64,000 bases of DNA from IMG/VR virus record IMGVR_UViG_3300027819_000009, positions 1-64,000 of that record. One strand, written 5' to 3'. Source of the DNA: a virus. Lineage: Duplodnaviria > Caudoviricetes. Positions within the stretch are counted from its first letter, which is position 1; every line of letters begins with the position of its first letter. Below the pieces are notes generated by a model. That model was not told the DNA's origin. It saw only the letters and a program-made list of their open reading frames with translations, and made no database searches. Both the position numbers and the translations under genes were made by a program. Of this stretch, positions 1 to 63,999 are shown one piece after another.

Positions 1-121
1 TTGGCTTTTGTCAAAGCGAGTGTTCCCCGAAGGCCTCTGGCCGGCGGGGCTTCGAGAAGCGGATCGCATTCCCCAAAAGCAGGGAGGGGGCGCTTGCGCC
101 AGGACAGAGGCTTTTGGGGAA
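1..121. repeat. 144-bp GC-rich element, copy 1 (truncated by the window start)
   Basis: Identical to nt 24-144 of the copy at 1748-1891; followed by CGG and an attC-like hairpin. Confidence 0.95.
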
Positions 122-209
122 CGGTTGAGGCTAAAAGCAGTTGCCTATACAAATACTGCTATGAAATACTAATGCTGATGGCAATTGCTTTTTAGCCTTT
201 GTTATAAGC
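122..209 (-). repeat. attC-like hairpin
   Basis: Arms ggctaaaagcagttgcc / ggcaattgctttttagcc, ending in GTTATAAGC. Confidence 0.75.
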
Positions 210-229
210 TGTTAAAATAAAAATTAGCG

Positions 230-487
230 ATGGCTTTGATAATTATTGGAACTGACAAAATGTGTACCTGCAATTGTGCAATGAAATGCGTTACACAACA
301 TAAAAGCGGAATGATGCCAAGATGCACAAAAGAAGAAATTGAAAACGCAGGACATAAAACAATTGAAGTGAATAGCACAAAAGACGATAAAATTATAAGA
401 GATATTTTGTGCATTGATGGCGATGAAAAGAAGATTAGACTTGACCTTGTTAGAAACAATAAGGTGCGTAGGAAATTTTTATTTTAA
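230..487 (+). CDS. Cassette-borne hypothetical protein
   Basis: ORF exactly fills the unit 201-498. Confidence 0.7.
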   Translation: MALIIIGTDKMCTCNCAMKCVTQHKSGMMPRCTKEEIENAGHKTIEVNSTKDDKIIRDILCIDGDEKKIRLDLVRNNKVRRKFLF

Positions 488-489
488 TT

Positions 490-1005
490 GCTTATAACGG
501 ATGGGGCTAAACGCAGTTACTTAAACTTTTGAGGGAAGGAATTTAATACTAAAAATATGAAAACAAATTGCTATTGCAGAAAAAATAATATCGAGGACAG
601 GCATTCGTGCGAACATTTTAATTATGATAATGAATGTAACCTTGACATAATTAAAAAGGGATATTGTTGGAGCGAGGACAGCCAAAATAAAAGATGCAAA
701 GAACAATGCGAAGATTGTAGAAAGGATATTTTAAATACACCAGAGGTAGGCGATACAGTACATTGGCAATATACGCACCATTTGAATAGCCGAAGCACAA
801 CCGAAATAGTAAAGACTGGTGTATTGATACGAATTGGTCAAACGAAAAAGAAATTTTTGGCTGACTGGACTACCAAAATAGGAGTAGTGCAATTTAAAGG
901 AAACAAAAAGCCTTCACGAATTAGATTTGACCAATTAATTAAGAAGTACTAATGTGCGATGGCAAAAAAAGTTTAAGTAATTGTCGTTTTAGCCTGTGTT
1001 ATAAG
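490..1005 (-). repeat. attC-like site split by an ORF in its loop
   Basis: Left arm gctaaacgcagttacttaaacttt (about 506-529) pairs with right arm aaagtttaagtaattgtcgttttagc (about 968-993); encloses ORF 557-952. Confidence 0.75.
557..952 (+). CDS. Hypothetical protein with Cys-rich N-terminus, inside an attC loop
   Basis: ORF preceded by an A-rich leader. Confidence 0.75.
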   Translation: MKTNCYCRKNNIEDRHSCEHFNYDNECNLDIIKKGYCWSEDSQNKRCKEQCEDCRKDILNTPEVGDTVHWQYTHHLNSRSTTEIVKTGVLIRIGQTKKKFLADWTTKIGVVQFKGNKKPSRIRFDQLIKKY

Positions 1006-1109
1006 GCGAAGCGAACCGTTGGCTTTTCGCCAATGGCTTATAACGTTACACGGCTATAAGTAGTAAACCAAAAAAAGCGAAGGAATTATAAACTAAAAAC
1101 AAAACAAAT

Positions 1110-1376
1110 ATGAAACAAAGATTAGAGATTTTCAAAACAGAAAGAACAAAAATTATGAGCGAAATGTTTGATAACCCAGACAATTGCGGAATTTACCCAA
1201 CCACTAAATGTTTTGAGGCGTTGGATAAATTATATTCGGAATTATGCCGAAAAGAAGCAATAGCATTTGGAGCAGAATACGCTTATAGAAAAGCTAATCC
1301 AGAAGGCAAAATGGATGTACCAAGTATCGTGTATGAAAATGCTGAAAGTTATTACGATAAAAAATTTGATATATAA
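1110..1376 (+). CDS. Hypothetical protein
   Basis: ORF with A-rich leader (aaaacaaatATG). Confidence 0.75.
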   Translation: MKQRLEIFKTERTKIMSEMFDNPDNCGIYPTTKCFEALDKLYSELCRKEAIAFGAEYAYRKANPEGKMDVPSIVYENAESYYDKKFDI

Positions 1377-1398
1377 AATAAAAAACCTAAATATTAAA

Positions 1399-1668
1399 AT
1401 GGAAAATACATTAGAAGATTTAGTTTCGACAATAGAGCGAAATTCAAACGATAACAAAGCGGAAATTACTAACGTGAAATTGTGGGCGGATTCGTGGCGA
1501 GAAGAATTTAGGGACAAGATAAATGAATTGCTTAAAGAATTTGATTTGGAAGAATACGATGTAGAACTGAGAATGGATTCGGTAAAAACGCAATTAAATT
1601 ATTGGCTGAAAGAAATGGATGGAGTACAAGATAAGAACCAAACTGTTTTGAAACTAAAACGTGCGTAG
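1399..1668 (+). CDS. Hypothetical protein (likely start 1399, not 1267)
   Basis: ATG after the upstream stop with an A-rich leader; helical, acidic protein. Confidence 0.7.
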   Translation: MENTLEDLVSTIERNSNDNKAEITNVKLWADSWREEFRDKINELLKEFDLEEYDVELRMDSVKTQLNYWLKEMDGVQDKNQTVLKLKRA

Positions 1669-1747
1669 GCTTTTTGGTTTATTACTTTATAGCCGATGTT
1701 AGCAAAGTGGGTGAGCCTGTGTGTAAGCCCGTTTTAATGTTTGCTAA

Positions 1748-1891
1748 TGCGATCCGCTTTGCGAATGGCTTTGGCTTTTGTCAAAGCGAGTGTTCCCCGA
1801 AGGCCTCTGGCCGGCGGGGCTTCGAGAAGCGGATCGCATTCCCCAAAAGCAGGGAGGGGGCGCTTGCGCCAGGACAGAGGCTTTTGGGGAA
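1748..1891. repeat. 144-bp GC-rich element, copy 2
   Basis: Inserted in TAA|CGG; 88/144 G+C; internal 1827-1850 is the reverse complement of the joined ends. Confidence 0.95.
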
Positions 1892-1979
1892 CGGTTGGGG
1901 CTTAACGAAGTTTGCTTTATACCAAATTAAAAAAATGGAAAAATGATAAAGCAAATTTTGTTTAAGCCCGTGTTATGTG
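1892..1979 (-). repeat. attC-like hairpin
   Basis: Arms ggcttaacgaagtttgctttat / ataaagcaaattttgtttaagcc. Confidence 0.8.
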
Positions 1980-2053
1980 TCTGTAAAATTTTTAATAATT
2001 ATTTTTTGCGAGGGAATTTTAATTTAATCATTAACTAATAAAAACAAAATCAA

Positions 2054-2608
2054 ATGGGAACAAGAAATTTAACAATGGTAATTAGCCAAGAAAAAACGAA
2101 AGTTGCACAATACGGACAATGGGATGGCTGCCCTGAAGGACAAGGTGCAACTGCATTAGAGTTTTTAAGGAAATCAGACCTTAATAAATTTAAAGAGCAA
2201 GTGGACAAACTAAGTTTTTTCACAGAGGAAGAAATCAAAGCTATTGACAGCGATGGTAATTGGAAGGACAAATATCCTTATTTGAGTAGGGATATGGGCG
2301 CGGAAATATTAAAAGCCATTTACGATGGGCAAGTGGAAAAACTTATCAATAAAGAAGCGTTTGCTGGAGATAGTTTGATGAACGAATGGACTTATGTAAT
2401 TGACTTAGATAAAAACACCTTTGAAGTTTATGAAGGGCTTAATCAAAAACCATTAGCCGAAACAGAAAGATTTTTCAGCTACTTTAATCATCCCGAACAC
2501 AGGACTGAAAAATATTACCCTGTTAAACTTGCAAAGACATATTCGATTGCTCAATTGCCAACCGAAGAAGAATTTATTGCTGACTTTACTGAAAAGGAAG
2601 AAGAATAA
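2054..2608 (+). CDS. Cassette-borne conserved phage hypothetical protein
   Basis: 184-aa ORF filling unit 1972-2666; MGTRNLT...YGQWDG...EWTYVIDLD resembles a common phage family. Confidence 0.8.
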   Translation: MGTRNLTMVISQEKTKVAQYGQWDGCPEGQGATALEFLRKSDLNKFKEQVDKLSFFTEEEIKAIDSDGNWKDKYPYLSRDMGAEILKAIYDGQVEKLINKEAFAGDSLMNEWTYVIDLDKNTFEVYEGLNQKPLAETERFFSYFNHPEHRTEKYYPVKLAKTYSIAQLPTEEEFIADFTEKEEE

Positions 2609-2658
2609 TCATTTAATCATTTGTGCGGTGGAAAAAATAATTATTAAAAATTTTATTG

Positions 2659-2738
2659 CACATAACGTTCCGCAGCTTTGCGTCTGTTGTGCGTTGGATA
2701 GTGAGGTAGGAGAATAGCGCAAAGGTGATGTTACCAAA
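2659..2738 (-). repeat. attC-like hairpin (uninterrupted)
   Basis: CACATAAC...ctttgcg / cgcaaag...GTTACC. Confidence 0.7.
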
Positions 2739-2800
2739 GTGTGTAAGGAATTTGAGCGTAGGCTCGTTGTTTAATTAATAAAAATAAAAAAGCGAAGGAT

Positions 2801-3151
2801 ATGGAAATAAAAATGAGAATTGTTGTGCCTGATGATTACACAGGAAACGGTATTAAGTTAACCGCAGGAACGCAAATTGAAATAATAAGGCAATCTGAAT
2901 TGGTCAGAGAGAATAACTCCATTACAGGGGAGGAGTTTACAAAAAGGATGAATGAAGTTATTAGAAAGCACTTCGGATATTTTGGGAGTAAGGTTGATAA
3001 GGCGTGTGATGAAATTATACGGACAGCTTGGGAGTATAATATTGCGAGTAAAAGCCATAAATGTAGAGATTGCCCCAAAATATTAAATGAGGATGATGGA
3101 GATATTATTGCAATTGGAGTTTGCTCAACTTGTAACACTACCAGTGCGTAG
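2801..3151 (+). CDS. Cassette-borne hypothetical protein
   Basis: ORF within unit 2730-3186; C-terminal CxxC...CxxC. Confidence 0.7.
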   Translation: MEIKMRIVVPDDYTGNGIKLTAGTQIEIIRQSELVRENNSITGEEFTKRMNEVIRKHFGYFGSKVDKACDEIIRTAWEYNIASKSHKCRDCPKILNEDDGDIIAIGVCSTCNTTSA

Positions 3152-3186
3152 GCTTTTATTTTTATTAATTAAACAATGTTTGGTAA

Positions 3187-3330
3187 TGCGATCCGCTTTG
3201 CGAATGGCTTTGGCTTTTGTCAAAGCGAGTGTTCCCCGAAGGCCTCTGGCCGGCGGGGCTTCGAGAAGCGGATCGCATTCCCCAAAAGCAGGGAGGGGGC
3301 GCTTGCGCCAGGACAGAGGCTTTTGGGGAA
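3187..3330. repeat. 144-bp GC-rich element, copy 3
   Basis: Identical sequence, inserted in GGTAA|CGG. Confidence 0.95.
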
Positions 3331-3423
3331 CGGACGGGGCTTGGCGATAGTGCCACCAAGCAACCGATAAATTCAAGGCACAAAGCTGATTGGTGGCATT
3401 TTGCCAAGCCCATGTTACCAGCA
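3331..3423 (-). repeat. attC-like hairpin
   Basis: Arms gggcttggcgatagtgccacc / ggtggcattttgccaagccc. Confidence 0.85.
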
Positions 3424-3463
3424 GTATATTTAAAATTTAGGGAGGCATTAAAACAAAATTACA

Positions 3464-3733
3464 ATGGGAAATTTAGTAGGATTAGAAGGAACTAATGGCA
3501 GAGAGATGGAAGCTGTTTTTATAAAAAAGCCATCTGATATTAGAAAAATATTGCGGGCTGGAAAGGGAGCAACGACAGCCGATGATAACGGAGCTATAAA
3601 TATTTGGCGTGATGATGAGGGCATGATAAGATGCGATGCGATGGCTTATATGCGCTCACTTGAAAAGAAGAAATATAAAACGCTGACAGAGGCTGAGAAG
3701 TGGGTTGCTAAATGGCTAAATAAGATACGCTAA
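3464..3733 (+). CDS. Cassette-borne hypothetical protein
   Basis: ORF within unit 3414-3767. Confidence 0.75.
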   Translation: MGNLVGLEGTNGREMEAVFIKKPSDIRKILRAGKGATTADDNGAINIWRDDEGMIRCDAMAYMRSLEKKKYKTLTEAEKWVAKWLNKIR

Positions 3734-3767
3734 TGTGCGCTGGCAATTTTAAATATATTGCTGGTAA

Positions 3768-3911
3768 TGCGATCCGCTTTGCGAATGGCTTTGGCTTTTG
3801 TCAAAGCGAGTGTTCCCCGAAGGCCTCTGGCCGGCGGGGCTTCGAGAAGCGGATCGCATTCCCCAAAAGCAGGGAGGGGGCGCTTGCGCCAGGACAGAGG
3901 CTTTTGGGGAA
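3768..3911. repeat. 144-bp GC-rich element, copy 4
   Basis: Identical sequence, inserted in GGTAA|CGG. Confidence 0.95.
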
Positions 3912-3990
3912 CGGTAAGTATTGGTTTAGTAAAGCCATACCAATACTTCAAATAAAAAATGGCTTTATTGAACCAATACATTGTTAAATT
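3912..3990 (-). repeat. attC-like hairpin
   Basis: Arms gtattggtttagtaaagccat / atggctttattgaaccaatac. Confidence 0.8.
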
Positions 3991-4007
3991 TAGTTATTTT
4001 AAAAAAT

Positions 4008-4199
4008 ATGGCGGCATTATTTATAGGATTTGGAATTGAGTTTTTTTTTCGTTCACTTATTATATTAGCAAATATTTTTCTTATTGTGATTTGCTATAAA
4101 GGAATAAGGGAATTAAATGCTGATAGTGAAAAAAACAAAAAAGAATTGGCTAAAATGAAGGAAGAATATAAACGAGATTATGGTACGGATATTTTTTAA
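4008..4199 (+). CDS. Cassette-borne small membrane protein
   Basis: Hydrophobic N-terminal half; ATG at 4008. Confidence 0.6.
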   Translation: MAALFIGFGIEFFFRSLIILANIFLIVICYKGIRELNADSEKNKKELAKMKEEYKRDYGTDIF

Positions 4200-4207
4200 A
4201 ATAATTG

Positions 4208-4303
4208 AATTTAACGGACGAGGGTTGGCGAAGTGCCGCTAACGAAAACCTCAAATTTAGCACAAAACTACCTGCGGCATTTTGCCAAACCCGTGTTATG
4301 GGA
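4208..4303 (-). repeat. attC-like hairpin (uninterrupted)
   Basis: AATTTAAC ggacga gggttggcgaagtgccgc / gcggcattttgccaaaccc gtGTTATGGG. Confidence 0.85.
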
Positions 4304-4350
4304 TAGTTTTAAAAACCTTTTAGGGTGGGCATTTAAACAACAAATAAAAA

Positions 4351-4728
4351 ATGGAAACAAAAATTAAAAATGCAAGTGTAAAAGTAATGTTGAGTTATGA
4401 CTACTCACATTTTGAGGCTTCAATGTCATTAGAAAATGATAATGGATTGACCGTAAAAGAAATTGATGCTGCCCGTAAAGACTGCCAACGATTAGCGGAT
4501 AAAGCTGTGGCACAATACAAAACTGCAAAGGCACAAGCAGCTTCAAGAAATGACGGGCAATACAAAATGAAAAACTTTGAAGCCGAATGTATCAAAATCA
4601 AAGCGAAGGATGAACACGACAGAACGCTGAAAGAAATTGCAATGTTGAAGCAATACGAAAATGAAAACTGGCAGGCTCAATTTGATTATGATTACGATTA
4701 TGATGATGACGATAATTACGGTTTTTAA
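4351..4728 (+). CDS. Cassette-borne hypothetical protein
   Basis: ORF within unit 4295-4764; acidic DYDYD tail. Confidence 0.8.
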   Translation: METKIKNASVKVMLSYDYSHFEASMSLENDNGLTVKEIDAARKDCQRLADKAVAQYKTAKAQAASRNDGQYKMKNFEAECIKIKAKDEHDRTLKEIAMLKQYENENWQAQFDYDYDYDDDDNYGF

Positions 4729-4764
4729 GGTGCGGTGGGAAAAGGTTTTTAAAATTTCCCATAA

Positions 4765-4908
4765 TGCGATCCGCTTTGCGAATGGCTTTGGCTTTTGTCA
4801 AAGCGAGTGTTCCCCGAAGGCCTCTGGCCGGCGGGGCTTCGAGAAGCGGATCGCATTCCCCAAAAGCAGGGAGGGGGCGCTTGCGCCAGGACAGAGGCTT
4901 TTGGGGAA
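4765..4908. repeat. 144-bp GC-rich element, copy 5
   Basis: Identical sequence, inserted in CATAA|CGG. Confidence 0.95.
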
Positions 4909-4961
4909 CGGTGAGTGCTTGTTGCCGTTATTTTCAATGGCATACAAGCACATGTTAGCTT
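4909..4961 (-). repeat. Short attC-like hairpin
   Basis: Arms gtgcttgttgccgtt / aatggcatacaagcac. Confidence 0.75.
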
Positions 4962-4995
4962 TAGTTACCTATTGCGAATTATAAAACGAAAATAT

Positions 4996-5202
4996 ATGTA
5001 CGAAGAAATAAAAAAGACAAGTTACTATTATGTGATAGTACATAAAGTAAGCGGTAAAATGCTTTTGCAGGATTGTAAAGCACCGATATATTGGAGCATG
5101 AAAGTTGCAACCGAAAGATGCAAATTATTCAGCGACTTTAAGGTGGCAAAAATACCTGCAAAAGTTTTTAACGAAGCGGTAAGCAAAGCAATAGGTAATT
5201 GA
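4996..5202 (+). CDS. Cassette-borne hypothetical protein
   Basis: ATG at 4996 within unit 4954-5209. Confidence 0.65.
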   Translation: MYEEIKKTSYYYVIVHKVSGKMLLQDCKAPIYWSMKVATERCKLFSDFKVAKIPAKVFNEAVSKAIGN

Positions 5203-5590
5203 AGCTAACGTATCGGGGCTAAACGAAGATTTAAACCTTTTGTGCGGTGGGGTTACACTGCATTCACAATATAAATAAATACAAAATGAAAAAGAAAATT
5301 GTTTACGAAACACAGTGGGTTGCGAGGGACAGCCAAAAAGAATACCCTCACGGATGGGGCTTTACTGCACCGTTGGTAGAATTTCCACAGGATGCTGACC
5401 CTGCGTGGTGCGGTGAGATGTGCAGAAAGCATTTGAGTAATGAAAAATTTGAGTGCATTGGAGCAACCCCAAGAGGAGTTATCAATGGACAATTTTCTTT
5501 TGAATACCCAAAGAATGCAGAAGAATGGAAAGCGTACAAAGAGCATGAGCAAGAAAAGGTTTAAATTTTTGTTTTAGCCCTTGTTATAAG
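5202..5590 (-). repeat. attC-like site split by an ORF
   Basis: Arms gggctaaacgaagatttaaacctttt / aaaaggtttaaatttttgttttagccc enclose ORF 5286-5564. Confidence 0.75.
5286..5564 (+). CDS. Hypothetical protein inside an attC loop
   Basis: ATG at 5286 after an A-rich leader. Confidence 0.7.
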   Translation: MKKKIVYETQWVARDSQKEYPHGWGFTAPLVEFPQDADPAWCGEMCRKHLSNEKFECIGATPRGVINGQFSFEYPKNAEEWKAYKEHEQEKV

Positions 5591-5615
5591 TCAGGTGGGC
5601 ATTTTCGCCCACTTG

Positions 5616-5645
5616 CTTATAACGGTATATATACGCAATGCCTTT
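5616..5645 (-). other. Candidate attI recombination site
   Basis: Last core site; minus strand reads gcgtatatataccG^TTATAAG; has no hairpin partner; lies immediately upstream of the integrase start. Confidence 0.5.
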
Positions 5646-5689
5646 AACTATTTAGAAAGCAAAGAGTTATTTTAAGATTATAATAGAAA

Positions 5690-6874
5690 ATGGGAAAGAT
5701 ATTTATTTATAGCCTTGTTTGTCCGGTTGGCGAATCTGTTAAATATGTTGGAAAAACCAAAACCGAGTTAAGTATTCGGCTATCTGCCCACCTAACCGAT
5801 TCTGGAGAAAACATAGAAAAAAACCTATGGATCGGCTCTTTAAAAGAAAAAGGACTGCGACCTGAAATTAAATTACTTGAGGTTACAAATGATGAGTTTT
5901 GGGAAATAAAAGAGGGACAATGGATAGAGAAATTTACTAACGATGGGGTTAAGCTGTTCAATAAAACACTAGATGAAAACCATAAGTTTGTAATTTTAAC
6001 TGCATATTTATCCACATTAAAAAGGCTAAACTACCGTCCCCAAACAATCAAATCTTATAGGGGATATTTTTTATGTTACTTGCGAGATTTTACAGGAAAG
6101 ATTTATAAAGACATTAAGGTTGCTGAAATAACATCTTATTTATCTGAGTTAGTTGAAAATAAAAACATATCGCCGGTTCATCAAAACTCTCTAATCAATG
6201 CCATTAAGTTCTATTATGAAAAAGTATTAAAATACCCTAAACAAACCTACTATATTAGCCGGCCAAGAAAGCCATCTAAAATACGCCCAATTTTATCGCC
6301 AGAACAAGTTTTAAAACTAGTCGATTCTATTAGTAATTTAAAGCAAAAAACCGCAATGCAAATTATATACTCTGGTGCATTGAGAATTGGAGAGGCTGTA
6401 AAACTACTAGTTTGCGACTTTGATTTTAATATCCGAACTTTAATGATTCGGGATGCCAAAGGAGGCAAGGATAGGATAGTAACACTTCCTGAACAAACAA
6501 TGAACTTAGTTAAAATGTATTTAGAAGAATATAAATGTGATTACTGGCTTTTTGAAGGACAGAATAAAGGAGAGTGCTATTCCCCATCTTCTATACAGCA
6601 AGTTTTCGGTAGGCAAATTAAGTCTCTTGGGTTTAATTTAGAACTAACTCCACACTGCCTCCGTCATAGTAGATTAAGCCATGTTTTAAATAGCGGAGTT
6701 AAAATTGAGATGGCTAGTAAATACGCAGGACACAAAAGCATATCTACAACGGCAGATATTTACTATCACTATATGACGGATGATATGCAGTCGCAATTTG
6801 ATGCGGCAGATGAGAAAATACTAACAAAATCAAAACAATTAAATGAACTAAACAACCAAAAACAACTAAAATGA
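5690..6874 (+). CDS. Tyrosine recombinase (integron/Xer-like, SAM-like N domain) with an N-terminal GIY-YIG domain
   Basis: Catalytic set present: LRIGE (R), AKGGKDR (K), HCLRH, GH, TTADIY(Y). First ~90 aa contain IYSL...YVGKT...R...H...E...N of GIY-YIG. Confidence 0.9.
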   Translation: MGKIFIYSLVCPVGESVKYVGKTKTELSIRLSAHLTDSGENIEKNLWIGSLKEKGLRPEIKLLEVTNDEFWEIKEGQWIEKFTNDGVKLFNKTLDENHKFVILTAYLSTLKRLNYRPQTIKSYRGYFLCYLRDFTGKIYKDIKVAEITSYLSELVENKNISPVHQNSLINAIKFYYEKVLKYPKQTYYISRPRKPSKIRPILSPEQVLKLVDSISNLKQKTAMQIIYSGALRIGEAVKLLVCDFDFNIRTLMIRDAKGGKDRIVTLPEQTMNLVKMYLEEYKCDYWLFEGQNKGECYSPSSIQQVFGRQIKSLGFNLELTPHCLRHSRLSHVLNSGVKIEMASKYAGHKSISTTADIYYHYMTDDMQSQFDAADEKILTKSKQLNELNNQKQLK

Positions 6875-7680: not shown

Positions 7681-7923
7681 ATGGAAACTACTACAACAAC
7701 CACAACAACAGCCAAACGGATTAAAAAATTCTATATTGGACAAAGAAACAACCCGTTTTTCAATAAGCCAGAATATAATGGCTACGGACAACTTTCTAAC
7801 GCAGAAGCGAAGCGAAAGGAAAAATGTACTTACGGAAGCATAATTTTAACATCATACGAAACAAAGTTAGAATACTTAACCGCCTTAGAGGAATTAAAAA
7901 CAAAAGGATTCAATATTCACTAA
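7681..7923 (+). CDS. Hypothetical protein
   Basis: ORF with good leader. Confidence 0.6.
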   Translation: METTTTTTTTAKRIKKFYIGQRNNPFFNKPEYNGYGQLSNAEAKRKEKCTYGSIILTSYETKLEYLTALEELKTKGFNIH

Positions 7924-7940
7924 CATTTAAAACAACAACG

Positions 7941-8198
7941 ATGAGTAAAACCAAAAACAACGCCATGTATGATATGGTAAACGCAATCAGAGAAGAGCAA
8001 AATCAAGAACCAAAAAAACCAAAAGTAAAACTAACGGGCCAAGACGGAAATGTATTTGTGCTTTTAGGAGTATGCTCGCGAGCATTAAAATCAATCGGAC
8101 AAGCGGATAAGGCAAAAGAAATGTCCGAAAAAGTATTTGCTTCAGGAAGCTACCACGAGGCACTTGGTATAATGGGAGAATATTGCGAGATAAGATAA
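7941..8198 (+). CDS. Conserved phage hypothetical protein (likely start 7941)
   Basis: LTGQDGNVFVLLG...SYHEAL pattern common in phages. Confidence 0.7.
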   Translation: MSKTKNNAMYDMVNAIREEQNQEPKKPKVKLTGQDGNVFVLLGVCSRALKSIGQADKAKEMSEKVFASGSYHEALGIMGEYCEIR

Positions 8199-8398
8199 TG
8201 TATAACGACTCCTACACCACCGAAACAGACTTTATTCCTACGCCGGAAATAACACTAGCCGAAGCTAGGACTAAGGCAAAATACCACGAGAAGATTATCT
8301 CCGCGAATAAAGGAGAGCTTACCAATGAGCAATTGGCAGATGATTACGAGCGACTGAATTACTACAACTACATTATACTTAAAAGAAGTAAAAAATAA
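8198..8398 (+). CDS. Hypothetical protein
   Basis: Coupled ORF (TAATG). Confidence 0.55.
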   Translation: MYNDSYTTETDFIPTPEITLAEARTKAKYHEKIISANKGELTNEQLADDYERLNYYNYIILKRSKK

Positions 8399-8668
8399 AT
8401 GGAGAAGGAGGTAGAGAGGCTGGAGAAAGATTCTGTAATGACTTTCGGGAAATACAAAGGCATAAAAATGAAGGACATCCCAGGAGAGTACTTTGTGTGG
8501 GTGTATAGGGAATACAGAAAGGATACTTTAAAATTCAGACTAGGAAAGGTGGCGCCAGTGGTAGCTTATGTTATTCGGAATCTAGACGAGATACAGGCTC
8601 ACTTTAGTATAAATACGAAGCACAACTTCGACAAGAAGGCTTGGCTTAAAAACTTTAAAAAAAAGTAA
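8399..8668 (+). CDS. DUF3820-like protein
   Basis: MTFGKYKG...DIPGEYFVW motif. Confidence 0.7.
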   Translation: MEKEVERLEKDSVMTFGKYKGIKMKDIPGEYFVWVYREYRKDTLKFRLGKVAPVVAYVIRNLDEIQAHFSINTKHNFDKKAWLKNFKKK

Positions 8669-8669
8669 T

Positions 8670-9575
8670 ATGACAATCAGCGAAGATTCACAGTTAGGAT
8701 TAAGGTTTAAAAAACAAGAAGTAAAGACTTCGTTTCTTAAAGTTTTTATAAGTAAATTAGAAAACGAGAAGTCGGCTATTACAGAAGGTATAAAGTTATT
8801 TAAGTCTCTTCCTGAAGGAATAAGCGAATCTGATGGTGAAAAACATCTTAAATCTGTTTTAGGAAGCGAGTACACAATATCTGGATTTACTAATGAAATA
8901 AAAATAGGTAAAAAAATAAGAGATATAGTTTCAAAAGAAACAAAAACAACTGTCGGGTCAATACAAAGTCTTATCCAAGAAGGAAGTATGAGTAAATACT
9001 TCTTTATCTGCGAGTCGGTTTATAAAGCATCGGAGCTTATAAAAATAGGTGAGAATTTTACAGGAAGAACGCTAAAGGATATCAAACACGGCCACTATAC
9101 CTACTTAATGGGTAAGAATACCATGATTAGATTTCTGGCCGTTCCTGGCGCAATATTAGGGCTGTATTGGGACGATAAAAAGAATCATGCATTTGAATTT
9201 GGAGTGGATTTAGAAACTGGCGAGTATTATGCCCCAATGGAAGAGGCGGTTAATTTTTCTGTTGTAATGCAATTAATGACTTTTATAGAACTCGGAGATA
9301 TCGAAGTAACTTATATAAACGCTTTATCAAACAACGGAAAGCCTAAAAAAGACGGTAAGGTTTATAACGCCTCAAATAACACCGTTTTTGTGGTAGACTC
9401 ATCTTGGAATAAACTACTTATTCGAACAGATGGTTTTGCCGTAAGAGGCCACTTCCGGTTACAGCCTTGTGGGGATGGTATGAAAGACAGGAAGCTAATT
9501 TGGATCGATGCATTTGAAAAACATGGCTATACTCGCAGGCCAAAAGGAGAGATAATTAATAAAACAACTATATGA
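8670..9575 (+). CDS. Phage hypothetical protein
   Basis: 301 aa; C-terminal VRGHFRLQPCG...IWIDAFEK motif seen in phage proteins. Confidence 0.7.
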   Translation: MTISEDSQLGLRFKKQEVKTSFLKVFISKLENEKSAITEGIKLFKSLPEGISESDGEKHLKSVLGSEYTISGFTNEIKIGKKIRDIVSKETKTTVGSIQSLIQEGSMSKYFFICESVYKASELIKIGENFTGRTLKDIKHGHYTYLMGKNTMIRFLAVPGAILGLYWDDKKNHAFEFGVDLETGEYYAPMEEAVNFSVVMQLMTFIELGDIEVTYINALSNNGKPKKDGKVYNASNNTVFVVDSSWNKLLIRTDGFAVRGHFRLQPCGDGMKDRKLIWIDAFEKHGYTRRPKGEIINKTTI

Positions 9576-29180: not shown

Positions 29181-29289
29181 TGCAAAAGGATGGATTCGAA
29201 CCACCGACTTGGGCCAAATAAGGCATGGCTATTATTTCCCCATCTCCTTTTTCTCAATGCCGACCGCTCTACCGCTGAGCTACTTTTGC
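29181..29289 (-). tRNA. tRNA-like gene with about 36 extra nt in the anticodon/variable region (intron-containing or pseudo)
   Basis: Acceptor GCAAAAG/CTTTTGC-A, D-arm GCTC-AGCGGTA-GAGC and T-arm GGTGG-TTCGAAT-CCATC are intact; 109 nt in total. Confidence 0.7.
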
Positions 29290-62118: not shown

Positions 62119-62617
62119 TTAGTTTTTCAAATTCTTGCAAGAATGTGTTTTTCGCATAACCCCTATCCCAACACTCCGTTTTTGGATCGTTCTTAATCAT
62201 TATAGTCTCCCATTCAAATTCCAAAAGCATCACATCGGCATGTTTTACCTTCTCATGCATTGGCCAATCGAAACCAAACTTCTCGGCTATTTTATGCATT
62301 AAATTCTCCTCGATGTTTTTATATTCCGGCATATTTGCTTTTATAGGCTTTGGGATATCCATTAAAAAACTTTCTGACGCATCATGTAATAGGGCTTGAA
62401 GTTTTAATTCCTCATTTTCCATATACCTCATTACCATTACGGAATGCTGTGCTACAGAGTAAAATCTTGGAAGGTGGCCCGCAAATCTGCATTGTTGGGA
62501 AAGACTATGTGCTATATCTAAGATGTCTATTGTTTCCAGCTTCGGGTCAAATACATTTATATATTTTCCGGTAAAAGTTCTGATGTGGTCTTTCGTGTAT
62601 AGGTTTTCTTTTGTCAT
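62102..62617 (-). CDS. HD-domain phosphohydrolase (5'-deoxynucleotidase-like)
   Basis: DIAHSLS..CRFAGH...YSVAQHS...LLHDASE. Confidence 0.88.
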   Translation of the reverse strand: MTKENLYTKDHIRTFTGKYINVFDPKLETIDILDIAHSLSQQCRFAGHLPRFYSVAQHSVMVMRYMENEELKLQALLHDASESFLMDIPKPIKANMPEYKNIEENLMHKIAEKFGFDWPMHEKVKHADVMLLEFEWETIMIKNDPKTECWDRGYAKNTFLQEFEKLTKKLK

Positions 62618-63999
62618 TCTATTTGGTTTAAAAAATCATTATTGCTTTCTAATTGTTTTATTGGTTCTGGAGATTCTATTACGGCCTGCTCGTATTGATT
62701 TTTAAATTTCATTAACTCTCCAATCCATTTAAGGTATATTTCTTTTGTGGCCCCGTGCCTGTTTTTTGCATTTATAATTTGAACAATGCCTTGTGTTGAG
62801 TTTCCTTCAGCATCTTGTGTTATGCCATAGGATGATGGGTTATAAATAAAGAATACCATATCCGCATCCTGTTCTATACTTCCACTATCTCTTAAATCGG
62901 AAAGCTGTGGGCGTTTATCGGGGCGCAATTCAACGGCCCTACTTAACTGCGACAATGCTATAATTGGGATTTCTAATTCTTTTGCAAGTGATTTTATCCC
63001 CCTACTAATAACACTTATCTCTTGCTCTCTATTTCCTTCTTTGCCGGTTCCAGACATTAACTGAAGGTAATCTATTATTATAAGGCTTATATTCTCCTCT
63101 CTTTTTAATTTCCTTGCCTTGTTTCGTAATTCAAAAATACTTAATCCTCCAGAATCATCTATAAAAAGAGGTGCATCTTTTAAAATCTGCATATCTCTTT
63201 TAAATAGTTTTTCTGTGTCATCATCCATTCCGTTTTTAACCAACTCGTGTGGTATTTCGGTCTCTTGTGCGGCCATTCTTATATAAAGTTGTTCTGCCGA
63301 CATCTCCATGCTAAAAATAGCGGTTGGGCTTCCGGACAACACTGCGTTTTTTGCTAAACAAAGAGCGAGTGCTGTTTTGCCCTGTCCTGGGCGGGCGGCT
63401 AAAATAATTAAATCTGATTTTTGCCAACCCCTCATTAGTTTATTAAATTCAACAAACCCTGTTTCAACTCCAATTACTATATTTGGGTTTTCTCTAATTT
63501 GCTTATTCCTTTCTAGTAACAGCGAGTATAGTGTACTTGATTTTACACCTTTCGAAGTGTTAAACCCAGAAACTATTCCTGTTATTTCCTTTTCATGCTC
63601 CTCAAGTAAATCAAAGCAGTCTGTGCCTTCTTCATAAGCAGACTTTATTGTTGCAGTTCCTATTCGTATTAATTCTCTTTGTATAAACTTCTGAGCCACA
63701 ATTCTAGCGTGGAATTCAATATTAGCAGAAGATGCTATTCTATTTGTTAGTTGTGAAACGTAATAGGATCCACCAACAAACTCAAGCTCCCCTGTTCTTT
63801 TAAGCTCTTGGGTAACTGTTAGAATATCAATAGGACTGTTTATTTTAAATAAATTAACTATCGCATTAAATACCTTTCCGTTTTGTTCTTTATAAAAACT
63901 TGCGGGGGTTAATATATCAATAACTACACTTAAACCTTCTTTCTCAAGAAGTACTGCTCCTAATACAGCCTCTTCAAGTTCTACTGATTGGGGTGGAAG
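62614..63999 (-). CDS. dnaB: Replicative DNA helicase, 5'-truncated by the window edge
   Basis: Frame is open to the edge (LPPQSVELEEAVLG); AARPGQGKT, IDYLQL, QLSR, DLRDSGSIEQDAD. Confidence 0.95.
   Translation of the reverse strand, partial: LPPQSVELEEAVLGAVLLEKEGLSVVIDILTPASFYKEQNGKVFNAIVNLFKINSPIDILTVTQELKRTGELEFVGGSYYVSQLTNRIASSANIEFHARIVAQKFIQRELIRIGTATIKSAYEEGTDCFDLLEEHEKEITGIVSGFNTSKGVKSSTLYSLLLERNKQIRENPNIVIGVETGFVEFNKLMRGWQKSDLIILAARPGQGKTALALCLAKNAVLSGSPTAIFSMEMSAEQLYIRMAAQETEIPHELVKNGMDDDTEKLFKRDMQILKDAPLFIDDSGGLSIFELRNKARKLKREENISLIIIDYLQLMSGTGKEGNREQEISVISRGIKSLAKELEIPIIALSQLSRAVELRPDKRPQLSDLRDSGSIEQDADMVFFIYNPSSYGITQDAEGNSTQGIVQIINAKNRHGATKEIYLKWIGELMKFKNQYEQAVIESPEPIKQLESNNDFLNQIE

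Follow-up and report, generated by a model that had tools for sequence, protein, structure and literature searches.

A virus-borne array of hairpin-bounded gene cassettes beside a GIY-YIG/tyrosine recombinase: a probable integron-like platform for gene capture

Integrons are the textbook gene-capture device of bacteria, and their origin from Xer-type recombinases, the birth of cassettes and attC sites and the use that viruses make of them are open questions. Here we describe a locus that bears on them, located in a groundwater virus at the start of IMG/VR record IMGVR_UViG_3300027819_000009 (74,657 nt), of which bases 1-64,000 were analyzed (hereafter the window). The first 5,689 bases are AT-rich and hold eleven small genes on the plus strand, arranged in cassettes bounded by hairpins; they are followed by the gene of a tyrosine recombinase with an N-terminal GIY-YIG domain. 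The locus is probably a virus-borne, integron-like gene-capture platform. Site-specific exchange of its cassettes by the adjacent enzyme is quite probable, and with less confidence we propose a single-stranded substrate and a role of the nuclease domain in the reaction.

Two systems described in phages are close to this locus. Clusters of attC-type sites have been found with IntegronFinder in virulent and temperate phages, including a phage of Polaribacter (Bacteroidota) (Qi et al. 2023, PMC9892861). Integrons have been published from phages too, which limits the premise of an initial annotation of this DNA, made by a model from the sequence, that chromosomes and plasmids are where integrons normally occur. 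In T4-type phages, PeSLs are modules of promoter and terminator that recombine by homology, shuffle genes and give rise to mini-circles (PMC2839356, PMC4122927).

Read base by base, the interval 122-5622 is composed of ten gene cassettes and of gene-less cassettes of 144 nt, named E, of which the window holds five copies, one incomplete at the window start. Each cassette consists of one 'L' hairpin (GGGGCT..AGCCC) and one 'R' hairpin (GTTA..TAAC) in strict alternation, according to the scheme ..TAA^C-GG-NN-[GGGGCT..L..AGCCC]-NN-[GTTA..R..TAA]^C-GG.., where a unit encloses a gene or just a short loop; cargo is placed in the R loop in seven cassettes and in the L loop in three (Table 1). All 15 junctions are AA^C or AA^T. 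The array terminates in ..GCTTATAA^CGG, followed by non-hairpin sequence, and the ATG of the recombinase is found 67 nt further on.

Inverted repeats of 22-50 nt, detected with a repeat finder, flank every small plus-strand gene within 1-5690. When pairing was computed with DNA energy parameters, the own far end was the best partner for 17 of 18 units, with a mean energy of -19.5 kcal/mol, compared with -7.1 across 306 cross pairings. A flank-complementarity score of at least 14 is reached by nine of the ten array gene units, the two-gene unit 1110-1668 not being scored as a single unit, and by one of 128 open reading frames (ORFs) in the remaining genome. The junction motif AACGGNNGRGGNT occurs five times, always within the array (0.09 expected). 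Moreover, both strands of the 64 kb were searched for an attC-like pattern (AAC[GT], hairpin, GTT[AG]), which returned six sites in the array, none in the rest and none in 30 dinucleotide shuffles. An arrangement of this kind goes well past what chance would produce. The initial annotation had rightly recognized at least seven gene units that start with GTTA and end with TAAC, namely the gene-bearing R units of Table 1, and the attC-like structured AAC/GTT hairpin sites that it saw between them are borne out by pairing, by the scan and by covariation. It overlooked the three gene units in L stems, the E element and the GIY-YIG domain. Furthermore, the GTT/AAC complementarity that it took as the signature of circularizing cassettes is a stem of 22-50 nt within one cassette, not a split R-box of 7 nt, and its division into gene cassettes parted by attC fails in three cassettes, which hold genes inside the loop of the supposed attC.

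The boundaries of the mobile unit come from comparison with other contigs. Every mapped breakpoint falls at an AA^C that flanks a hairpin on its 5' side, and none of those mapped is at the top-strand G^TT to which the initial annotation assigned the exchange. In 11 of 13 viral contigs, base 120 (AACGG) is where homology to the first hairpin module begins. Among soil contigs (X6) the beginnings are at 1890 and 3910, and cassette 10 is placed behind the 1699-1747 hairpin (from 1747); in another joint (X5) the hairpin at 3337 stands behind the 5583-5623 hairpin (from 5624). Modules 86-100% identical to those of the window are found across unrelated metagenomes, joined in other orders and with different ORFs between the arms, and hairpin modules at 90-100% identity are present in soil, lake and viral metagenomes. 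Because the breakpoints are at AA^C, the cassette is C-GG-NN-[L unit]-NN-[R unit ..TAA], a hairpin and then a gene; with this single crossover point any excision or insertion keeps the L/R alternation and leaves the stems intact, and for this reason units match their own far end and cargo can lie in either loop. A shufflon or inverton with alternating site orientation was also considered and dropped, since the genes share a single strand and inverted variants were not encountered.

The same position marks the end of the array beside the recombinase. A block AACG(G)TAWATATACGCWAT..TAAC.. is kept upstream of recombinases 52-58% identical to the window enzyme, and this conservation supports the candidate attI that the initial annotation placed upstream of the recombinase, which we treat as a putative attI-like site. 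In contigs L093/L095 and L094, which come from different samples and encode an identical recombinase (P0004), divergence occurs exactly upstream of TATAAC|G, and different cassettes abut the AACG-TAWATATACGCWAT block.

The hairpins themselves are conserved in shape. In 36 distinct stems, drawn from the window and 17 other contigs (18 sources in all), the geometry is kept and the sequence is free to vary. Compensatory changes occur in 10 of 11 pairs of the L stem in an alignment of 20 sites, where the covariation score is 0.541, as opposed to 0.152 in shuffles (none of 500 reaches 0.541) and 0.05-0.13 with slid partners. An attC hairpin is defined by R''(..AAC), an unpaired spacer, an L box, a variable loop and R'(GTT..), a length of 50-150 nt and conservation of structure; this organization is found in the six array sites and in the 36 distinct stems. 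The spacer is mostly of 5 nt, rather than 1-3 nt, and a bulged base is present in the 3' arm, 8-9 pairs up, in 8 of the 36 stems. The RYYYAAC/GTTRRRY consensus is absent; only TAAC/GTTA is kept, and examples of the R starts are GTTATAA, GTTATGT, GTTACCA, GTTAAAT and GTTAGCT.

The strand that folds is also informative. Of 35 distinct viral sites, 33 fold more stably as the top (coding) strand, by a mean of 2.3 kcal/mol over the sites (Wilcoxon p = 5e-7), and on this strand G-T pairs are common and A-C pairs few. By the same energy calculation the viral sites do not have the bottom-strand folding of integron arrays, which is instead found in 12 of 12 sites of a control array in Nibribacter koreensis (L105), as in classical integrons. 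Better folding of the coding strand is consistent with a top-strand cut at AA^C. Viewed from the opposite strand the geometry is that of a canonical integron, with a recombinase gene directed away from the attI-like site and a folded strand that would be cut at AA^C within its 5' arm, but the cargo ORFs lie the other way round and read toward the recombinase. The viral array is, in this respect, an integron-like platform with its cargo on the other strand.

The E element is GC-rich, has no ORF, folds into two hairpins and has the same length in every copy. It is located at TAA^CGG at four sites in the window, behind four different R arms, and a soil contig holds the empty version of the site at 1747. 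In contig L089 a different, unrelated sequence (E') repeats the same two-hairpin dumbbell design at xAA^CGG, with three complete copies (449-597, 2858-3000 and 3280-3422) and a fourth interrupted by the contig start. The exact E pattern has no match in IMG/VR. E and E' look like minimal selfish cassettes. Insertion of E backwards, at a bottom-strand G^TT, was considered and dropped, because all mapped breakpoints are at AA^C and E fits as an ordinary forward cassette. Similarly, a contig reading 3183-E-1896 (X3) was rejected as an excised circle, since both of its junctions are present in window order, at 3-6x depth; it is most likely a path through the E repeat. The 'direct terminal repeat' of the record is E itself (window 1-130; contig 74532-74657, corresponding to L007 12532-12657), and therefore a repeat of 144 nt underlies both the closure of the genome into a circle and the order given to the array segments that lie between E copies. 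The left flank of the first E copy deviates (..GGCACC|GCGATCC). About 300 nt of non-coding DNA separate this copy from a region ahead of the array (contig 72481-74225; L007 10481-12225) that encodes a second Xer-type tyrosine recombinase, of 319 amino acids, and an N6/N4 DNA methyltransferase.

The ORF next to the array encodes a protein of 394 amino acids that matches Pfam families PF13495 (Phage_int_SAM_4) and PF00589 (Phage_integrase). It has the SAM-like and catalytic fold and the R-K-H-R-H/W-Y set of tyrosine recombinases, and R232, K257, H322, R325, H348 and Y358 are invariant across 12 homologues. The best relatives by fold and solved structure are archaeal XerA and then IntI4. IntI enzymes are distinguished by an extra domain of about 35 amino acids (helix I2) between patch III and box II. 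In the alignment to IntI4 (2a3v), residues 112-303 of the viral enzyme correspond to 15-207 and residues 301-362 to 246-306, so the integron-specific insert (IntI4 207-246) has no counterpart. All NCBIfam scores are under the cut-off, with 131.8 against 265 bits for TIGR02249, 92.5 against 435 bits for NF011946 and 162 against 220 for the top model, NF040815 (XerA/integron integrase). That the recombinase beside the array lacks the IntI insert, as noted in the initial annotation, is thus confirmed.

The N-terminal part scores 23.3 bits with the GIY-YIG profile PF01541 (cut-off 22.6) when residues 1-102 are searched alone, and Y7, Y19, R30, H34, E75 and N91 are invariant. The structural model of this part has a beta-beta-alpha-alpha-beta-alpha order and is nearest to PD-T4-3, I-TevI, UvrC-N and T4 EndoII (TM score 0.5-0.66, with weak E-values). 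By family profile, residues and modeled fold, amino acids 1-95 are an intact GIY-YIG nuclease domain. About 15 full-length homologues, all metagenomic and 51-65% identical, were found among 5.8 billion proteins; the next tier, at about 40% identity, is composed of Bacteroidota proteins with the NCBI name 'tyrosine recombinase/integron integrase'. The literature searched, subscription-only papers being outside reach, gave no account of this site family or of a tyrosine recombinase fused to a GIY-YIG domain.

The order of array, attI-like site and recombinase recurs in five other lineages of uncultivated viruses (L089, L028, L025, L017 and L066/L008). In L089 the recombinase is 57% identical to that of the window and the array contains E'; in L028/L040/L057/L072 the array closes with an R hairpin, followed by a recombinase of 281 amino acids; in L025, L017 and the Sunxiuqinia provirus L066/L008 the sites are upstream of the recombinase. 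L052 and L067 carry arrays of 4-9 sites, and no recombinase was found in these records, which are rated complete. Searches in Pfam and PHROGs gave no useful family match for the eleven array genes of the window, apart from one family of unknown function. A PAPS-reductase-like protein and a methyltransferase of Dam type are among the cargo of the relatives; by inference only, such cargo is compatible with anti-restriction functions. No hairpin module was found in isolated phages (INPHARED, distant blastn), where the only match was a coding one, to gene 2054-2608. In cells, the nearest relatives of the enzyme are about 40% identical to it and stand at the head of cassette arrays that lie in chromosomes and have attC-type sites. 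In Nibribacter koreensis (L105, 10001-21000), for instance, about 14 single-gene cassettes lie beside an Xer/XerA-type recombinase, and this array is an integron-like system that IntI-based tools may label as integrase-less.

We propose that the mobile unit would be an AA^C-bounded cassette, made of two stems (L and R) with short unpaired spacers connecting them, and with the cargo gene or genes in the loop of either hairpin. On circularization, or in single-stranded DNA, the proximal parts of the stems and the spacer could form an R-box/spacer/L-box resembling a folded attC. The GIY-YIG/Xer-type recombinase would then act on the coding strand in its folded form, cutting AA^C within the 5' arm and exchanging strands with another cassette site or with the attI-like site before its own gene, and cassettes would be inserted, excised and reordered. 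A DnaB-type replicative helicase is encoded at window 62614-63999 (minus strand); the virus would therefore replicate with a lagging strand, which would expose single-stranded DNA. A broader and rather doubtful scenario is that a family of viruses infecting Bacteroidota and allied hosts runs an integron analogue of its own. The GIY-YIG domain fused to its Xer-type enzyme would nick or resolve the single-strand-exchange junction, so that the reaction could be completed without host replication, and two-hairpin 'dumbbell' cassettes with cargo in either loop, probably anti-defence genes, would be traded across soil, freshwater and groundwater viruses. If this were true, empty slots and gene-less dumbbells would reveal cassette birth.

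Several observations weigh against a gene-capture platform. No excised-circle junction was seen among assembled contigs. Four viral records rated 98-100% complete (G002, G003, G008 and G010) carry sites and no homologous recombinase, so sites can persist, or be served in trans, without the enzyme. Some contigs retain the arms and enclose another ORF, and one weak joint sets ORF 5286-5564 behind other arms; as a consequence, an extra exchange process at ORF boundaries may exist. The short-read order of array segments is uncertain owing to the five E copies, and the percentage of paired positions is inflated because sites were selected by a folding filter, which leaves the compensatory changes unaffected. 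The arrays of L028 and L040, at about 90% identity, are collinear. The shuffling of genes that the initial annotation expected to see in related contigs is consequently supported in part, by the modules joined otherwise in X5 and X6 and by the polymorphic junction beside the recombinase, and not by this pair. A difference between L028 and L040 was rejected as array-related, being apparently a homing-endonuclease insertion in a helicase gene; in L040 (reverse complement) an additional ORF that resembles an endonuclease, together with a helicase 5' part that has diverged, occupies 7901-8940 in place of 380 nt in L028 (484-863).

Other explanations have to be weighed against the same data. The hairpin modules might be portable homology like PeSLs, with genes shuffled by general homologous recombination and the recombinase merely an integrase or dimer resolvase. 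The near identity of modules across unrelated metagenomes while the enclosed ORFs differ would be expected in this case, as would arrays in apparently complete viruses without a recombinase, and mini-circles have a precedent in PeSLs (PMC2839356). We consider this explanation unlikely, however, because the distance of breakpoints from AA^C is no more than about 3 nt, where homology would allow them anywhere along its length, because stems covary as sequences diverge, which homology-driven exchange has no need of, and because arms unique to one cassette are useless as shared homology. Promoters and terminators are not enriched either: sigma-70 promoter-like sites number 19 (22.9 in shuffles) and terminator-like sites 6 (6.2 in shuffles), in a scan outside which Bacteroidota-type promoters lie. 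Less likely again is that the stems act in RNA, where pairing of untranslated regions would provide processing sites, stabilizers or weak terminators of a long early transcript and DNA mobility would be secondary. Such a role would account for the better folding of the coding strand, with its many G-T (G-U) and few A-C pairs, for the stem around every gene and for Shine-Dalgarno-like internal loops in the 5' arms. It leaves unexplained the DNA insertions at AA^C, the conservation of the attI-like site and the polymorphic junction; gene-less hairpins and E would regulate nothing, and neither matched Rfam at gathering and E-value thresholds (only two tRNAs elsewhere and one chance miRNA did). 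An RNA role is possible as a second function of the stems alongside their DNA role.

It is very improbable that a single-strand transposase encoded elsewhere moves the hairpins and E as selfish palindromes of the MITE, REP or IS200/IS605-like PATE kind, which would accumulate between genes. Such an origin would fit E taken by itself: E and E' are each a dumbbell without an ORF, present in several identical copies and inserted 3' of a fixed xAA, which resembles IS608-type insertion 3' of TTAC. However, independent insertions would not yield a strict L/R alternation with genes within stems, association with a tyrosine recombinase is repeated across six lineages, and no HUH/TnpA-type gene turned up in protein-family scans limited to the cassette genes and about 20 larger ORFs. 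The integron-like reading of the initial annotation is retained for the array, the sites, the non-IntI enzyme and the attI-like site, and is not supported for the G^TT breakpoint and the repeat signature.

Table 1. Coordinates of the cassettes, the attI-like site and the recombinase gene in the window.
Feature	Position	Strand	Description
E copy 1 (gene-less, 144 nt), incomplete	1..121	+	remainder at contig end 74532-74657
Cassette 1	122..497	+	L hairpin 127-199; R unit 201-498 with gene 230-487
Cassette 2	498..1044	+	L unit 503-994 with loop gene 557-952; R hairpin 998-1046
Cassette 3	1045..1747	+	L unit 1053-1695 with genes 1110-1376 and 1399-1668; R hairpin 1699-1747
E copy 2	1748..1891	+	placed at TAA^CGG; corresponding empty site in soil contig
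Cassette 4	1892..2665	+	L hairpin 1897-1970; R unit 1973-2667 with gene 2054-2608
Cassette 5	2666..3186	+	L hairpin ~2672-2727; R unit 2729-3186 with gene 2801-3151
E copy 3	3187..3330	+	
Cassette 6	3331..3767	+	L hairpin 3336-3411; R unit 3414-3767 with gene 3464-3733
E copy 4	3768..3911	+	
Cassette 7	3912..4214	+	L hairpin 3914-3979; R unit 3983-4215 with gene 4008-4199
Cassette 8	4215..4764	+	L hairpin 4220-4291; R unit 4294-4764 with gene 4351-4728
E copy 5	4765..4908	+	
Cassette 9	4909..5208	+	L hairpin 4913-4950; R unit 4954-5209 with gene 4996-5202
Cassette 10	5209..5622	+	L unit 5215-5581 with gene 5286-5564; R hairpin 5583-5623
attI-like site (putative)	5623..5689	+	C-GG-TATATATACGCAAT..TAAC..; kept upstream of four recombinases 52-58% identical to that of the window
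GIY-YIG (aa 1-95) and Xer/XerA-type tyrosine recombinase (aa 104-361)	5690..6874	+	catalytic residues intact in both domains

Short motifs accompany the cassettes. Most cassette stop codons coincide with, or are closely followed by, the G-rich motif GTGCG-N-[TA]-GG, which often provides the TAG (window 462-474, 953-968, 1659-1675, 2621-2636, 3143-3157, 3734-3750 and 4728-4744), and a purine-rich motif (AGCGAAGGA, GAGGGAAGGA) precedes gene starts. In places the two abut without an intervening ORF (window 2738-2766; loop of hairpin 2 of E' in L089), like an emptied slot. A motif near TTCAAATTTAGCACAAA is common to many L-hairpin loops of different viral contigs (window 4246-4262 and 3370-3385; L052, L046, L067, L074, L101 and L103, alignment A4), and a similar motif is found ahead of the gene in L-type cassettes. 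Elsewhere in the window, a tRNA gene at 29181-29289 (minus strand) has an insertion of 54 nt, possibly an intron, at the anticodon region. The public contig L091 opens (1-34) with a Nextera transposase adapter, an assembly contaminant.

The locus is a real and apparently undescribed viral variant of the integron principle. It bears on all three questions raised at the outset. It would work in an integron-like way without the IntI-specific domain; its cassettes either are empty or hold their cargo in one of the two loops, R or L, which makes three states; and the genome that carries it is viral, with an adjacent recombinase joined to a nuclease of a structure-specific type. The occurrence of nearly identical modules in soil, lake and viral metagenomes suggests a cassette pool shared by environmental viruses, and the enzyme with its short, structure-defined sites could serve as a recombination tool.

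Compared with T4-type PeSLs (PMC2839356, PMC4122927), the array shares stem-loop modules between small accessory genes in a hyperplastic region and differs in the lack of promoter and terminator enrichment, in its fixed breakpoints and covarying stems and in having a dedicated recombinase. With the phage attC clusters (PMC9892861) it has in common DNA methyltransferases among the cargo, as in L052; those sites, however, are canonical attC, tested with bacterial IntI1 and in arrays of at least 2 sites, in comparison with 15 junctions in the window, and none there has its own non-IntI recombinase and attI-like site. The array of Nibribacter koreensis has a recombinase of the same domain type, also without the IntI insert, and single-gene cassettes with AAC..hairpin..GTT sites. 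Its sites are near-canonical (CCTAAC..GTTGGG), about 65 nt long, mutually similar and better folded on the bottom strand, and the array is downstream of the recombinase and has no GIY-YIG domain, loop genes or E elements. Finally, the viral array shares with integrons (IntI/attI/attC systems, sedentary chromosomal integrons and CALINs) one-gene cassettes, imperfect AAC/GTT hairpins with an unpaired spacer, a second box and a variable loop, a putative attI-like site from which the neighboring tyrosine recombinase gene points away, an AA^C break in the 5' arm of the better-folding strand, and cassettes that differ between some relatives. It differs from them in an enzyme that has no IntI insert, scores below integrase cut-offs and carries a GIY-YIG domain, in sites that keep only GTTA/TAAC and not GTTRRRY and have stems of 22-50 nt, in cargo on the opposite strand relative to the site, in genes allowed in the hairpin loop and in gene-less cassettes of 144 nt.

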